Origin: a virus
Lineage: Duplodnaviria > Heunggongvirae > Uroviricota > Caudoviricetes
Strand: one strand, 5' to 3'
IMG/VR virus record: IMGVR_UViG_2740892423_000017
Length of the DNA: 4,307 nucleotides
Below the pieces are notes generated by a model. That model saw nothing but the letters and a program-made list of their open reading frames with translations. It was not told the DNA's origin and did not search any database. Positions within the stretch are counted from its first letter, which is position 1; the number at the start of each line of letters is the position of its first letter. The position numbers and the translations under genes are program-made. Below are positions 468-4,307 of the stretch, piece by piece.

Positions 468-831
468 AAATGTAGAAATGGCGCTTAGCTCCGCAATCGG
501 AGAGCAGGTGGCAAAGATTGCTGGTGCTGTGTGGATTCATAACCTTCATTCTACTGGTGAAGAGAAAATGGCAATTCAGACGCCAGAGGGACGCACCATT
601 ACTACATCTCTGAAGCCGTCAGATGTTTGTGATCTGATTTGCGCATTCATGTACCCAGCAATGAGGACTGTCCACGGCGATAAGTGGAAACTTGCGACAA
701 CCGCTGAATTTGATATGTGGCTAAACAATGATGGCATGCTGACTGATTACGGAATAACCAAGTGGCAGATGCTGGTTAGCCATATCGCAAACGCTATAGA
801 CCACGTGGGGTACGGTGATGCGAAACATTGA
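460..831 (+). CDS. hypothetical small protein (123 aa), second small ORF, translationally coupled on both sides
   Basis: ATG at 460 overlaps the upstream stop by 8 nt, with GGGAGG (448-453) as SD. Stop TGA at 829-831 lies 14 nt inside the primase ORF. No recognisable domain. Confidence 0.7.
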   Translation: MRENVEMALSSAIGEQVAKIAGAVWIHNLHSTGEEKMAIQTPEGRTITTSLKPSDVCDLICAFMYPAMRTVHGDKWKLATTAEFDMWLNNDGMLTDYGITKWQMLVSHIANAIDHVGYGDAKH

Positions 832-3274
832 TCTTATCCGTCAGGTTATCAGTGCGTCTGAAAACAACTGGCCTCATGTGCTGGGCTGCCTGAACATAAA
901 TGTCCCTGACTCTCCGCGCCGTCATGCTCCCTGCCCTGCATGTGGTGGAAAAGACCGTTTCAGATTCGACGACAACGGGCGCGGTAGCTTTATCTGCAAC
1001 CAGTGTGGCGCTGGTGACGGGCTGGATTTAATCAAGCGGGTTAACAACTGCGACACCACGGAGGCGGCACAGCTTGCCGCTGACGTGCTGGGTATTGATT
1101 ACCGGGCAGCGCAAACCGACCCGGCGGCAGCGAGCCATAGAAGAGAGCAACTGGAAGCCGACCGCCAGCAGCGTGAGCAGGAGCGCCAGAAACAGGCAGC
1201 AGAGGACGCAGAGCAGCGAAGGGCTACGTTTGCCCATCTGTATGCCGGAATGCGCCAGAGTGCCACACAGGGCGAATCTGATTACCTGCAATCAAAAGGG
1301 CTGACCGGGTTTAACTATCCGGTTATGCCGGATGGTTCGTTATTGCTGGAGCTGGTGGACGAATCCGGCGCAGTGGCAGCAGCGCAAACCATTACACCGC
1401 AGGGAGAGAAGCGACTCCTGACAGGTTCAGCAAAGCGCGGGGCATATCACGCCGTAAACGCGCCAGAATCGCCGCAGAGCGTTTTAATTGCCGAGGGGCT
1501 GGCTACCGCTCTGTCTGTTCACCTGATGCGCCCGGACGCGCTGGCAGTGGCAGCAATTGACGCCGGGAACCTGATCCACGTTGCCGGAGTAATGCGCCGG
1601 AAATACCCGCAGTCGCAAATTATTATCGCCGCAGATAACGACCACCCTACAGCAGCCTCCGAAACCGGAGCCACCAACATCGGGAAGGAGGCCGCAGAGA
1701 AAGCAGCTTTATCCGTGGCTGGCTGGGTATCGCTGCCACCGACTGACAGCAAAGCTGACTGGAACGACTACCACCAGCAACACGGGCTGGAAGTCGCTAC
1801 GGCTGCGATTAACGATTCGATGTACCGGCCGCAGGGGGAATGCGTGAAACCACAACTACAGGCCATTGCTGGCGGTAAATCCCGCCGTAAAGCCGATGTC
1901 GGAGATATTGCACAAATGGCAGCCAGCCAGAAAGCGCGGTTGCTTTCATCTCGATGGGATATGTTGGCGGTTAACCCAGATAGTGGCACTGTTTACTGCT
2001 ACGAATCTGGCGTATGGGTGAAGCTACCAGACAGCGAATTAGAAAGGGTTATGGTGGCAATTTTCGACGAGCACGAAGCCCACTACACCGAAAAGGGGAT
2101 TAAATCGGTTGTCGCAACCATGAAGCTGCAAATACCGGTAATTGGTGAGCGGAGCGGGGATCTGATTGGTTTTGATAACGGCGTTTATGACCTCGCTACG
2201 CAGACGTTTTCCGCCCATTCGCCGGGTAACTGGCTGATGAACCACAATGGGATCACCTACACCCCGCCAGCGCCGGGGGAAAATATTACCACCAGCGCCC
2301 CCAATTTTACCCGTTGGCTGAATCATGCAACGGCTGGCGACCATCATAAGGCCGAGCGTATCAAAGCAGCCTTGTTTATGGTGCTGGCGAAGCGTCACGA
2401 CTGGCAGCTATTCATTGAGATAACTGGCGAGGGCGGCAGTGGGAAATCCGTATTCAGCAGCATAGCCGTATCACTGGCAGGTGAGCACAACACAGCCAGC
2501 GCCAGCATGGGAGCGCTAGACACAGCCAGAGGGCGGGCGCAGCTTGTAGGAAAAAGCCTGATTATCATGCCAGACCAGACCCGCTATGTTGGCGAAGGCG
2601 CAGGGATAAAGGCCATTACAGGCGGCGACCCAGTAGAGATTGATGGTAAGTATGAAAAGCAGTTCACCACCGTGCTAAATGCCGTTGTTCTCGCAACCAA
2701 CAACGAACCAATGACCTTTACCGAGCGCAACGGGGGCATTGCCCGCCGCCGTGTGATATTCCCGTTCGATAATCCGGTATCAGAAGCGGAGAAAGACCCC
2801 GACCTGACAGCGAAGATCTGCCGTGAAATGCCGGTAATTATTCGTCACTTGCTGGCAATGTTTGCCGACCAGAACAAAGCTAAAGCGCTTTTAATCGAGC
2901 AGCGCGATTCCGCAGAGGCGTTGGGCGTTAAGCGCGGGACAGATCCGGTCATAGACATGTGCGCGGCCTTGTATTTTATGAACGAGCCGAAGGGAATGAT
3001 GATGGGGGGAGGAACGTGGGCAGGACAGCCAGAGCCGAGAACTTACCTGTATCACCTTTATTTGGCCTTTATGGAATATCACGGGCTAGGGAAGCCGCTT
3101 TCCGTCAACAAGTTCTCACGGGCGATTAAATCAGCCGCCAGAGAATACAGGGCTAACTACCTGACACGCAGCATTAACGGCAGAGCGCAGACGAACGTTG
3201 GGATCAATGAGTTGGCGGAGGAGTTTATACCGCGAGCATATGGCAGCAGCACCGCCGAAGGGGGTGATGAATAG
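818..3274 (+). CDS. DNA primase-helicase, phage P4 alpha-like (N-terminal Zn-ribbon, TOPRIM primase, D5_N-like region, SF3/P-loop NTPase, C-terminal putative origin-binding region)
   Basis: An 819-codon frame from GTG 815; I prefer ATG 818 (GGGG at 807-810 as SD). Zn-ribbon C-x2-C...C-x2-C (CPACGGKDRFRFDDNGRGSFICNQCG, nt ~932-1006). TOPRIM glutamate in IAEGLATALS (GAG at 1493-1495), resembling the EGYATA primase motif of P4 alpha as I recall it, and acidic cluster IIIAADNDH (~nt 1620-1645). FDNGVYDL motif typical of D5_N/P4-family primase C-terminal domain. Walker A GEGGSGKS (nt 2426-2449) and Walker-B-like LIIMPD. Stop TAG 3272-3274. Confidence 0.93.
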   Translation: MRNIDLIRQVISASENNWPHVLGCLNINVPDSPRRHAPCPACGGKDRFRFDDNGRGSFICNQCGAGDGLDLIKRVNNCDTTEAAQLAADVLGIDYRAAQTDPAAASHRREQLEADRQQREQERQKQAAEDAEQRRATFAHLYAGMRQSATQGESDYLQSKGLTGFNYPVMPDGSLLLELVDESGAVAAAQTITPQGEKRLLTGSAKRGAYHAVNAPESPQSVLIAEGLATALSVHLMRPDALAVAAIDAGNLIHVAGVMRRKYPQSQIIIAADNDHPTAASETGATNIGKEAAEKAALSVAGWVSLPPTDSKADWNDYHQQHGLEVATAAINDSMYRPQGECVKPQLQAIAGGKSRRKADVGDIAQMAASQKARLLSSRWDMLAVNPDSGTVYCYESGVWVKLPDSELERVMVAIFDEHEAHYTEKGIKSVVATMKLQIPVIGERSGDLIGFDNGVYDLATQTFSAHSPGNWLMNHNGITYTPPAPGENITTSAPNFTRWLNHATAGDHHKAERIKAALFMVLAKRHDWQLFIEITGEGGSGKSVFSSIAVSLAGEHNTASASMGALDTARGRAQLVGKSLIIMPDQTRYVGEGAGIKAITGGDPVEIDGKYEKQFTTVLNAVVLATNNEPMTFTERNGGIARRRVIFPFDNPVSEAEKDPDLTAKICREMPVIIRHLLAMFADQNKAKALLIEQRDSAEALGVKRGTDPVIDMCAALYFMNEPKGMMMGGGTWAGQPEPRTYLYHLYLAFMEYHGLGKPLSVNKFSRAIKSAAREYRANYLTRSINGRAQTNVGINELAEEFIPRAYGSSTAEGGDE

Positions 3275-3287
3275 TTTACCCCTGATT

Positions 3288-3306
3288 TATCCCTACCTAT
3301 CCCTAC
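3288..3306. repeat. iteron cluster 1: two direct copies of TATCCCTAC (3288-3296, 3298-3306)
   Basis: Direct reading: ttatccctacctatccctac, copies spaced 10 bp. Confidence 0.8.
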
Positions 3307-3346
3307 AAAGTCATTTAAGGCCAGTAATGACGGGGCTTGTAGACTG

Positions 3347-3392
3347 GTAGGGATATATATATTTATCCCTACATATCCCTACATATCCCTAC
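3347..3392. repeat. iteron cluster 2: inverted copy GTAGGGAT (3347-3354), 10-bp AT-only spacer (3355-3364), then three direct copies of ATATCCCTAC (to 3392) at 10-bp phasing
   Basis: Direct reading: GTAGGGAT-atatatattt-ATCCCTAC forms a perfect 8-bp inverted repeat around a pure A/T spacer, a plausible DNA-unwinding element. It is followed by ATATCCCTAC ATATCCCTAC. Confidence 0.8.
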
Positions 3393-3430
3393 TAAACAAG
3401 AAGCCACGCATAACCGTTTTTTGGTATTTG

Positions 3431-3459
3431 GTAGGGATAGGTAGGGATAAGTAGGGGTA
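3431..3459. repeat. iteron cluster 3: three reverse-orientation copies GTAGGGATA, GTAGGGATA, GTAGGGGTA at 10-bp phasing
   Basis: Direct reading: gtagggatag gtagggataa gtaggggtag. A degenerate forward copy (tgCCCTAC, 3469-3476) follows after an A-rich spacer. Confidence 0.8.
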
Positions 3460-3515
3460 GAAAAACAATGCCCTACCAGCCTGAAAGCCGCGCCACATAT
3501 GGGTTTTATCGATTG

Positions 3516-3533
3516 GTAGGGATTGGTAGGGAT
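3516..3533. repeat. iteron cluster 4: two reverse-orientation copies of TTGGTAGGGAT at 10-bp phasing
   Basis: Direct reading: gattggtagggattggtagggata. Lies about 35 bp upstream of the next ORF, so it may overlap that gene's promoter. Confidence 0.75.
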
Positions 3534-3565
3534 ATTACACCCCCAAAAAGATTCACAGGGGGGGT

Positions 3566-3775
3566 ATGATTCAGCTAAAGGGCGAAAAAATGAACGAACA
3601 TCATAAAAAGCAGATCGAAGTTGTTAGAGAGATTGAAGCGCAGGGGTTCACCGCGCAGGAGGCGGCGGCCTTGTTACTGGCTGGCGAATTATCCCGACTA
3701 AATGACAGCATGGACTACCTGAAACGAGCCGCTGGGAATATTGACGACACGTTATCAAGAATGGAGTGCGCTTAA
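3566..3775 (+). CDS. hypothetical small protein (69 aa from ATG 3566; 61 aa if translation starts at ATG 3590), predicted mostly helical, translationally coupled to the downstream SSB-like gene
   Basis: ATG 3566 sits 1 nt after a G7 run, which is poor SD spacing. The in-frame ATG at 3590 has AAGGG (3578-3582) 7 nt upstream and is the more likely start. Stop TAA 3773-3775 overlaps the next ATG (TAATG). No recognisable motif; the stretch FTAQEAAALLLAGELSRL could be a DNA-binding helix, but that is speculative. Confidence 0.6.
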   Translation: MIQLKGEKMNEHHKKQIEVVREIEAQGFTAQEAAALLLAGELSRLNDSMDYLKRAAGNIDDTLSRMECA

Positions 3776-4209
3776 TGACAGCACAAATTTCAGCATACGG
3801 GCGGCTGGTGGACGAGCCGCAGGTAAAACAGACCAGCAAAGGCACAAGCATGACGCTGGCACGCATGGCGGTATCAGTGCCGTGCCATAACGCAGACGAC
3901 GGGCAGGCGACGCTATGGCTTGCCGTAACTGCCTTTGGCAGACAGGCCGACGCACTGGCAAAGCACCACAAAGGCGACCTTGTGAGCGTGGCGGGTAACA
4001 TGCAGGTGAACCAGTGGACAGGCCAGAACGGCGAAACGCGGCAGGGCTGGCAGGTTATCGCAGACAGCGTAATCAGTGCGCGAACGGTGCGACAGGGAGG
4101 CAAAAATAGCCAGCGGGGACAGGCGACGGACGCGCTGAGACGTGCGCAGCAGTCAACCCGTGATGAATACGACCAGCGCCCACCATTCGACGATGAAGCG
4201 CCATTCTGA
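3775..4209 (+). CDS. ssb: single-stranded DNA-binding protein (SSB-like OB-fold protein, 144 aa) with acidic C-terminal tip ...FDDEAPF
   Basis: ATG 3775 overlaps the upstream stop, with GGAG (3763-3766) 8 nt upstream; the ORF track's 3766 start is a GTG 9 nt further upstream in the same frame. The translation aligns by eye to E. coli SSB: [19 protein letters not shown] vs [40 protein letters not shown] vs [38 protein letters not shown] vs LRTRKWTDQSGQDRY. The tail PPFDDEAPF matches the SSB tip MDFDDDIPF. The linker is much shorter than in E. coli SSB. Confidence 0.85.
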   Translation: [144 protein letters not shown]

Positions 4210-4219
4210 GGGGGGGGGG
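4210..4219. repeat. G10 homopolymer tract in the 15-nt gap between the SSB stop and the next ATG
   Basis: Direct reading: tga-GGGGGGGGGG-tgaac-ATG. It is positioned where the Shine-Dalgarno of the downstream gene should be. Confidence 0.9.
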
Positions 4220-4224
4220 TGAAC

Positions 4225-4307
4225 ATGGTAAACGACAGCAAAGCTGAGGATCTGGAAGCAAAAGGGCTGTACCGACGCGCCGCCGCGCGATGGATGGAAG
4301 TCATGCT
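4225..4307 (+). CDS. 5' end of a gene running off the window (27 codons visible); possible PerC-family small transcriptional regulator
   Basis: ATG 4225 lies 5 nt after the G-run and the frame is open to the window end: MVNDSKAEDLEAKGLYRRAAARWMEVM. The segment AE-LE--GL-RRAA-RW--V matches what I remember as the conserved N-terminal signature of PerC/Pch-like regulators. This is recall, not a search result. Confidence 0.45.
   Translation, partial: MVNDSKAEDLEAKGLYRRAAARWMEVM

Follow-up and report, generated by a model that had tools for sequence, protein, structure and literature searches.

A P4 alpha-type primase-helicase and its iteron origin as the probable replication module of a PICI-like Escherichia coli island at thrW

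The window analyzed in this work is the entire 4,307-bp contig JRGD01000037.1. At positions 818-3274 of the plus strand, on which all the genes of the window described below are located, it carries a gene for a primase-helicase-initiator protein of 818 aa (hereafter the replicase), a full-length homologue of the alpha protein of phage P4. We propose, with a probability of about 0.85, that the product of this open reading frame (ORF) initiates, as a self-contained unit, the replication of a small integrative E. coli island, which is inserted at thrW and resembles the phage-inducible chromosomal islands (PICIs). The element is a PICI-like replication module with a P4-alpha-type initiator, a dyad iteron origin and a single-stranded DNA-binding protein (SSB), and both the family and the mechanism are already well known. 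The new aspects are the origin itself, located where the existing annotation is blank, the identity of the C-terminal domain, the tracking of the iterons by this domain, and the independent exchange of the protein modules.

The ORF is unbroken; it could start at a GTG at 815 or at the ATG at 818, from which the 818 aa are counted, and the public gene calls for the contig place the replicase gene at 818-3274. Two further contigs, L003 (98 kb) and L004 (12.4 kb), code for an identical replicase. A first-pass annotation of the sequence had claimed a P4 alpha-type architecture for this gene from several motifs, and each of them was found in the translation where it had been placed. The Zn-ribbon (aa 34-69, nt 917-1024; Zn_Ribbon_Prim, E 2.7e-15, 56.8 bits) includes CPACGG (aa 39-44, nt 932-949) and CNQCG (aa 60-64, nt 995-1009). 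The TOPRIM primase core (aa 222-323, nt 1481-1786; Toprim_3, E 9.6e-15, 55.2 bits) presents the EGLATA motif (aa 226-231, nt 1493-1510) with its glutamate E226, as well as DND at 273-275. The D5_N domain (aa 415-503, nt 2060-2326; E 1.6e-7, 32.1 bits) contains FDNGVYDL (aa 452-459, nt 2171-2194), and the superfamily 3 (SF3) ATPase core at nt 2423-2767 corresponds to the P-loop family DUF5906 (aa 536-643, E 2.9e-11, 44.4 bits). The SF3 motifs, namely the Walker A GEGGSGKS (aa 537-544, nt 2426-2449), the Walker B LIIMPDQ (581-587), the motif C VVLATNN (623-629) and RRR (643-645), do not vary within the family and align with those of P4 alpha. Finally, a C-terminal winged-helix origin-binding domain is predicted at aa ~708-806 (nt 2939-3235) from its homology to the structure 1KA8 and from a Pox_D5 match (aa 740-803, 27.7 bits). 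The five Pfam domains (Zn_Ribbon_Prim, Toprim_3, D5_N, DUF5906 and Pox_D5) are all above the curated thresholds and, together with TIGR01613 (‘phage/plasmid primase, P4 family’, 108.8 bits for a cutoff of 108.7), they are the Zn-ribbon, Toprim, D5_N, P-loop and P4-family models that such an architecture predicts.

Among the phage records, P4 alpha was the sole full-length match (tblastn, 38% identity, E 4e-161); it aligned over 97% of the query and the catalytic motifs matched one to one, which bears out the P4 alpha-type architecture. In addition, PHROG 2249 (‘DNA primase’) matched aa 32-801 with an E of 8e-149, and the structure of PriRep5 from the Staphylococcus aureus pathogenicity island SaPI5 (7OLA) aligned with aa 393-652 (E 2e-11). 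Structure prediction with AlphaFold2 (AF2) was carried out on shallow alignments, with close homologues alone as input. The full-length model reached a predicted local distance difference test (pLDDT) of 66 and a predicted template modeling score (pTM) of 0.38, and it is usable solely for aa ~120-340 and parts of D5_N. Foldseek searches with this model retrieved the SaPI5 PriRep and the poxvirus D5/E5 helicases, and the DnaG and T7 gp4 primases for the N-terminal half. Judged by homology, the replicase has four modules: a DnaG-type Zn-ribbon and TOPRIM primase (aa 1 to ~350), a D5-family SF3 hexameric helicase (aa ~360-660), a helical linker (aa ~660-705) and, at aa ~708-806, the winged-helix origin-binding domain.

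A charged, Q/E/R-rich segment, HRREQ...AEQRR (aa 107-135, nt 1136-1222), is located between the Zn-ribbon and the TOPRIM core, which the first-pass annotation had placed at about 1133-1225 and considered a likely linker. This proposal agrees with the model, in which the segment lies inside a single long helix (aa 102-148, nt 1121-1261) predicted with moderate confidence and with a pLDDT that rises from ~51 to ~91. The region of the charged helix is the least conserved stretch with respect to P4 alpha and to the replicase of the PICI EcCIMP1, and a linker function fits these predictions.

The part of the protein that follows the helicase core had been regarded as devoid of any recognizable motif. 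This was not the case, since both Pox_D5 and the origin-binding domain of P4 alpha, whose crystal structure is 1KA8, were found there. In a single-sequence search 1KA8 matched aa 708-799 (E 1e-8), and a profile of 19 diverse relatives matched its whole chain (E 8e-27). The region is thus made up of a conserved helical linker (aa ~650-705, within TIGR01613), a winged helix of ~100 aa (~708-806) and a short variable tail. Because structure prediction is poor in this region, the assignment of the winged-helix fold rests on homology; the predicted secondary structure, three helices and then a beta-hairpin, is no more than compatible with such a fold.

Directly after the gene, 15-260 nt past the stop codon, we located a replication origin (3289-3533) on the basis of its repeat count, comparison with shuffled sequences, geometry, AT profile and homologous layouts. 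It is composed of twelve 8-bp iterons, GTAGGGAT / ATCCCTAC, ten of them exact, one with a single mismatch and one with two. In the window, sites with up to one mismatch amounted to 16 when 2.4 were expected, a number reached in none of 200 shuffles, and 11 of the 16 are located within 3289-3533; the ten exact copies present in the whole island all belong to this single cluster. The iterons are spaced by 10 bp within runs and form six mirror pairs around position ~3411: two leftward copies at 3289-3306 are opposite two rightward copies at 3516-3533, three copies at 3365-3392 are opposite three at 3431-3458, and a single one at 3347-3354 faces a degenerate one at 3469-3476. The highest AT content was observed at ~3345-3375 (ATATATATATTT) and at the dyad center (~3410-3430). 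The origins of PICIs and SaPIs are located 3' of rep and consist of opposed iteron sets around an AT-rich stretch (PMC6092414; PMC9371898), and SaPI Reps, which are self-loading, read the iterons just downstream of rep through a C-terminal winged helix (PMC9371898). As judged from its sequence, the origin of the window follows this design.

Besides the iterons, the origin contains an element, CTGAAAGCCGCGCCA (3481-3495), conserved with an exact copy in the PICI EcCICFT073, for which a role as a host-factor site or as a promoter element is possible. Close variants of it were observed in L001 and L002, two related loci at the yicC/dinD site (CTGAAAGCCTTGCCA), and a close variant in a circular element of Klebsiella. 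The iteron together with its flank (3285-3296 and others), TTATCCCTAC, coincides at 7 of 9 positions with the DnaA box consensus, TTATCCACA, and this may be a coincidence. The origin ends on the right with a poly-G tract (3558-3564), just ahead of the ATG at 3566, whose length differs among copies that are otherwise identical: it has seven G in the window and in L005, eight in L003, L004 and L002, and six in L001; a second run, before the perC-type gene (4210-4219), has ten G in the window and six in L002. These differences could be homopolymer sequencing errors, or they could reflect slippage that affects the expression of the downstream genes. A scan of 3150-3800 for promoters and terminators gave nothing above the shuffled expectation, with no terminator past the replicase gene, and Rfam at a permissive threshold gave only sub-threshold miRNA and snoRNA matches, which are due to the palindrome of the origin.

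To relate the iterons with the C-terminal domain, 80 related loci from species-representative genomes were compared, and a repeated 8-mer was sought up to 500 bp from the stop codon. In most of the 80 loci there was a dominant one, with a common register formed by a GT anchor and six variable bases. The classes, which like the register were assigned by ourselves from consensus sequences, include GTAGGGAT (window and close relatives), GTAGAGAT, GTAGATAA, GTAGAC.., GTGAACAG (the P4 type), GTGAATAG, GTGTTCAT, GTATACAC, GTGTATAG and GTGCATAG. In 32 replicons, the iteron distance was correlated with the winged-helix distance (r 0.70), also when the helicase was taken into account (partial Mantel r 0.68, permutation p 2e-4), whereas the partial correlation with the helicase distance given the winged helix was -0.17. 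The Aeromonas loci (GGTCACTG) were excluded from the final Mantel test, as their register is uncertain.

The iteron sequence tracks the winged-helix domain and not the helicase, and natural swaps of the domain change the iteron class. The replicase of Tatumella (L014) is 73-85% identical to that of the window up to aa ~700 and only 33% from there on, the break being the domain boundary; its iterons are of the P4 type, as are those of L022, with which it shares 86% identity in the C-terminal domain. A second swap is that of EcCIMP1, where aa 1-352 are shared with the window protein but the helicase/C-terminus and the iterons (TGAACCAAC) are different. A finer case is given by L062 and L064, whose proteins differ in eight residues (463, 468, 662, 728, 742, 787, 790 and 807 in window numbering), five of them in the last ~100 aa, with 787 and 790 in the predicted wing. 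In the 420 bp after the stop codons, their origins show the repeats at equal offsets and orientations, and every iteron is changed at three positions (GTATACAC vs GTGTTCAT). An alternative register for the iterons of L064 and L071, ATGAACAC, was rejected, since the positions in the L062 and L064 origins support the GT-anchored GTGTTCAT. Furthermore, the association of alignment columns with the iteron class had a mean z of 3.25 in aa 706-806 and of 1.1-1.3 elsewhere; the five columns with z>6 all fall within aa 706-806, with a cluster at 784-790 that corresponds to the predicted hairpin. The first-pass annotation had proposed the C-terminal ~170 aa as the candidate for the iteron-specificity domain. 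What stands of this proposal concerns the last ~100 aa, where the homology to 1KA8, the downstream iterons, the covariation and the domain swaps make such a role well supported at the sequence level, with the caveats on linkage that are given below. A bolder idea, which we put forward as a tentative and rather doubtful one, is that the read-out of the iterons is a compact re-programmable code, residing largely in the wing (aa ~784-790) and a few neighboring positions. If this were true, a handful of substitutions would be enough to obtain mutually orthogonal satellite replicons, the coexistence of many such islands per cell would be explained, and a natural toolkit of orthogonal origins would be at hand.

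The genomic context was examined on the contigs with the identical replicase. In L003 the island adjoins proBA (100% identical to E. coli) at thrW, the gene of tRNA-Thr(CGT), and it is bordered by a 12-bp direct repeat, CTCCTATTATCG, at 3473-3484 and 15892-15903, which gives a size of 12.4 kb. The order of genes is integrase, a 251-aa ORF, AlpA, AntA antirepressor, DUF4222, an Ash-family protein (Phage_ASH, PF10554, E 2.9e-14, L003 7055-8038), several small ORFs, replicase, origin, small ORF, SSB, PerC, a 125-aa ORF, PRiA4_ORF3 and one ORF on the reverse strand. L004, a Logan contig from sample ERR4843808, starts and ends on the att core CTCCTATTATCG (1-12 and 12420-12431), as would be expected of a de Bruijn assembler if the sample contained, next to attL and attR, an attP-type junction from excised circles or tandem copies. 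Such a junction would read ...GTGTATTG-CTCCTATTATCG-GCACCATTCAAAC... In L003, outside the window and upstream of the small ORFs past PerC, there is also a 77-nt imperfect direct repeat (13742-13818 and 14527-14603, 73% identical), which L002 conserves and the Klebsiella element conserves in part; it is not a lambda-type cos.

This island type is widespread. Some part of the window is matched by 1,797 of 5,426 complete E. coli genomes, and in other E. coli genomes close relatives (86-91% identical) lie between yicC and dinD, which is a second site. At E<=1e-10, the helicase half is matched by more than 5,000 database proteins. Furthermore, a 22.9-kb ‘plasmid’ of Klebsiella pneumoniae (NZ_CP033626.1) is a circular island of the same type, with int, AlpA, AntA, Icd-like, primase-helicase, SSB, PerC, tape-measure-like and PRiA4_ORF3 genes and with iterons GTAGACGT/GTAGAGGT; its true size would be 18.2 kb, given a terminal duplication of 4.65 kb which is probably an assembly overlap. 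This circular element and the ends of L004 on the att core suggest that the replicon works extrachromosomally.

The island presents the layout described for Gram-negative PICIs (Fillol-Salom et al. 2018, PMC6092414): ~10-15 kb at an att site, int at one end, unidirectional genes, alpA after int, and no structural or lysis genes. In the SatelliteFinder scheme, P4-like satellites are defined by seven components that include psu-delta-sid (PMC10085698). Four of them are present in the island (integrase, AlpA-type regulator, Ash/epsilon and alpha) and, as the psu-delta-sid operon is lacking, it is not P4-like; its class would be that of a ‘Type C’ PICI (int, alpA and primase only), like EcCIMP1. 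Pfam and PHROG scans of the island ORFs gave no capsid, tail, terminase, lysis, Psu/Sid/Delta, relaxase or type IV secretion system (T4SS) family, PADLOC found no defense system among the unassigned ORFs, the AntA protein giving only a partial PDC-S22 match, and the phage collection contained no nucleotide match. The first-pass annotation had spoken of a satellite or island replicon. The island is borne out by int, alpA and the att repeats at thrW, and by the lack of conjugation, phage structural or lysis genes around the identical copy in the 12.4-kb island; the word satellite, as well as the mobilization by a helper phage, we infer from the gene content only. The flanks proposed for classifying the element did yield an integrase and alpA but neither capsid-redirection genes nor a lambda-type cosN; with up to one mismatch none was found in L003, while EcCICFT073 has two.

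Several observations weigh against the reading of ORF 818-3274 as the initiator of a PICI-like island. For the island, we found no helper phage, cos/pac, small terminase, capsid-size or packaging-redirection gene. Regarding the protein, the TIGR01613 cutoff was cleared by just 0.1 bit, the ATPase and C-terminal domain are unreliable in the full-length AF2 model (pLDDT ~27-55), and the model of the isolated C-terminal 169 aa (pLDDT 49) is unusable and did not confirm the winged-helix fold. With respect to specificity, the iteron classes and register depend on our own assignment, and the covariation could be inflated by linkage, since the sequence coding for the winged helix lies directly against the origin and both tend to recombine together; between L062 and L064, the DNA identity falls gradually on approaching the 3' end of the replicase gene and continues to do so in the origin.

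The explanation that best survives next to the PICI-like island is that of an integrative plasmid-like element, or a decayed remnant of a satellite, whose replicon would be episomal after excision and packaged by no phage. P4 itself is able to persist as a plasmid, relatives of the island have been deposited as small non-mobilizable circular plasmids, and no packaging signal or hijacking gene was identified in the island. In addition, int, alpA and a primase make only a ‘Type C PICI’, a class that according to its authors may include defective or other elements (PMC10085698). We nevertheless consider this explanation unlikely. The closest characterized relative is EcCIMP1, which has in common with the island its att site, its left arm and, in the replicase, the N-terminal third, and which is induced and transferred by phage Kapi1 though it has no recognizable packaging genes (PMC11773190). 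Genes such as those for the AntA antirepressor, Ash and the Icd-like protein typically belong to modules of interaction with phages, and the fact that this island type is intact in many genomes argues against mere decay.

Much less probable is a strict P4-like satellite, dependent on P2 and remodeling capsids through Psu, Delta and Sid, of which the gene would be the alpha. The replicase is indeed a full-length alpha homologue, it is accompanied by int, an AlpA-type regulator and an Ash-family protein, and the iterons are placed as the crr of P4. However, no homologue of psu, delta or sid appears among the island ORFs (Pfam, PHROG), the genes are unidirectional with int first, as in PICIs and not in P4, and there is one iteron cluster instead of an ori and a crr 4.5 kb apart. 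Moreover, the identity to P4 alpha (38%) is lower than that to the Pri-Rep of EcCICFT073 (49%), with which the right arm (ori, small ORF, SSB, PerC) is syntenic. A conjugative-plasmid primase of the TraC/Sog type, as one homologue labeled ‘DNA primase TraC’ by its source and the EGYATA-type motif shared with plasmid primases could suggest, or a part of a complete prophage, is ruled out by the context in L003 and L004: the 19.5 kb around the identical copy carry no relaxase, T4SS, capsid, tail, terminase or lysis genes, the element has 12.4 kb with att repeats at a tRNA gene, and the phage collection gave no nucleotide match while the plasmid matches are small and non-mobilizable.

Assuming a PICI-like island, replication could proceed as follows. 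After induction and excision, the winged helices would bind the twelve GTAGGGAT iterons of the dyad origin, and the AT-rich DNA between the opposed iteron sets would melt. The helicase would then load itself, probably as two head-to-head hexamers and without a separate loader, and the tethered primase would lay the first primers. The island SSB, encoded two genes downstream, would coat the unwound strands, and the host polymerase would complete replication. Binding, melting, self-loading and priming are proposed here from the homologues, namely P4 alpha, the pri-rep-ori of EcCICFT073 and the SaPI Reps.

The remaining genes of the window are small. Upstream, two ORFs at 126-467 (113 aa) and 460-831 (123 aa) overlap each other and the replicase gene. 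The former is matched by phrog_37628 (E 6.5e-50), and the latter has no match in Pfam, NCBIfam, PHROG or PADLOC. EcCIMP1 has the two ORFs, and the 123-aa one is absent from L001 and L002, where the 113-aa ORF directly abuts the replicase gene. Downstream of the origin there is an ORF of 69 aa (3566-3775, alternative ATG at 3590) with no family match. A small ORF between ori and ssb is also found in L001, L002 and EcCICFT073; by blastp, the 69-aa ORF showed no similarity to its EcCICFT073 counterpart. It is followed by the island SSB (3775-4209, 144 aa; Pfam SSB, E 3.7e-17; TIGR00621, 62.4 bits), which is 65% identical to the SSB of EcCICFT073. Its acidic tip DDEAPF (4189-4206) resembles the tip of E. 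coli SSB, DDDIPF, which recruits host replication and repair proteins. The 5' end of a PerC-family regulator gene (4225-4307; PerC in Pfam, PHROG 994 and 10396) is truncated by the end of the contig; the full gene in L003 codes for 103 aa.

With these results, a 4.3-kb contig is identified as a PICI-like replication module. The family to which it belongs offers a large natural set of matched initiator/iteron pairs, with at least a dozen iteron classes on one protein scaffold and clean domain swaps. This data set could be used to study how winged-helix initiators choose their origin, and the lack of cross-activation among related satellites in one cell. The comparison also shows that, from one E. 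coli island to another, the primase and the helicase/origin-binding modules swap independently. All these results add detail to an established picture and leave the current understanding unchanged.

Among the systems that have been characterized, the SaPI Reps and PriRep5 (7OLA) are self-loading SF3 helicases (Qiao et al. 2022, PMC9371898). They share with the replicase of the window the SF3 ATPase and the C-terminal winged helix, with iterons immediately downstream that are opposed around an AT-rich center, and in PriRep5 a primase is also fused to the helicase. However, the identity in structural alignments is ~15%, the hosts are Gram-positive, the iterons have 5-6 bp, and the N-terminal primase part of PriRep5 is not of the Zn-ribbon/TOPRIM type.

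P4 alpha combines a DnaG-type primase, a D5-family SF3 helicase and a C-terminal winged-helix origin-binding domain (PMC4889955), and the order of its four modules (Zn-ribbon, TOPRIM, D5-type SF3 helicase and winged helix) is the same as in the window. The Zn-ribbon of P4 alpha, CPVCGG...CNQCGAGDG, is almost identical, and the other motifs correspond to each other (EGYATA/EGLATA, DRD/DND, GPGGSGKS/GEGGSGKS, LIRLPDQ/LIIMPDQ and VILAVNN/VVLATNN for P4 alpha and the window, respectively, with RRR in common). The crr of P4 also presents 8-bp repeats in both orientations, with ~10-bp spacing, directly after alpha. On the other hand, the P4 iteron is GGTGAACA instead of GTAGGGAT, the one dyad origin of the island contrasts with the crr of P4 and its additional cluster, ori, 4.5 kb apart, and psu, delta and sid are absent from the island, which has the PICI gene order.

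Closer similarities are found with the two PICIs. The pri-rep-ori of EcCICFT073 suffices for plasmid replication (Fillol-Salom et al. 2018, PMC6092414), and its Pri-Rep is 49% identical to the replicase over aa 270-804, that is, D5_N, ATPase and winged helix. Its ori is located right 3' of the gene, with GGTAG-type iterons (GGTAGACA/GGTAGATA) in a like layout and with CTGAAAGCCGCGCCA in common, and the small ORF, SSB and PerC follow in the same order. EcCICFT073 differs in its protein of 584 aa, without the Zn-ribbon and most of the TOPRIM primase, in its chromosomal site, and in its capsid-like genes and two lambda-type cos sites. EcCIMP1 (L008), the PICI of E. coli MP1 mobilized by phage Kapi1 (PMC11773190), shares with the island the thrW/proA att site, the left arm (AlpA, AntA, DUF4222, Ash/Icd and the 200-, 113- and 123-aa ORFs), and PerC and PRiA4_ORF3 at the right end. 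The first ~80 aa of its replicase (L008 19422-22178) are identical to those of the window, and the identity over aa 1-352 (window 818-1873) is 74%; from aa ~353, however, it continues with a DUF927-type helicase and an unrelated C-terminus. Its iterons are TGAACCAAC, and it carries P22-like ejection-protein genes that are absent from the island. Since EcCIMP1 shares the primase and has an unrelated helicase and C-terminus, the primase module is exchanged independently of the helicase/origin-binding module. The island of the window is a mosaic relative of EcCIMP1 and EcCICFT073.

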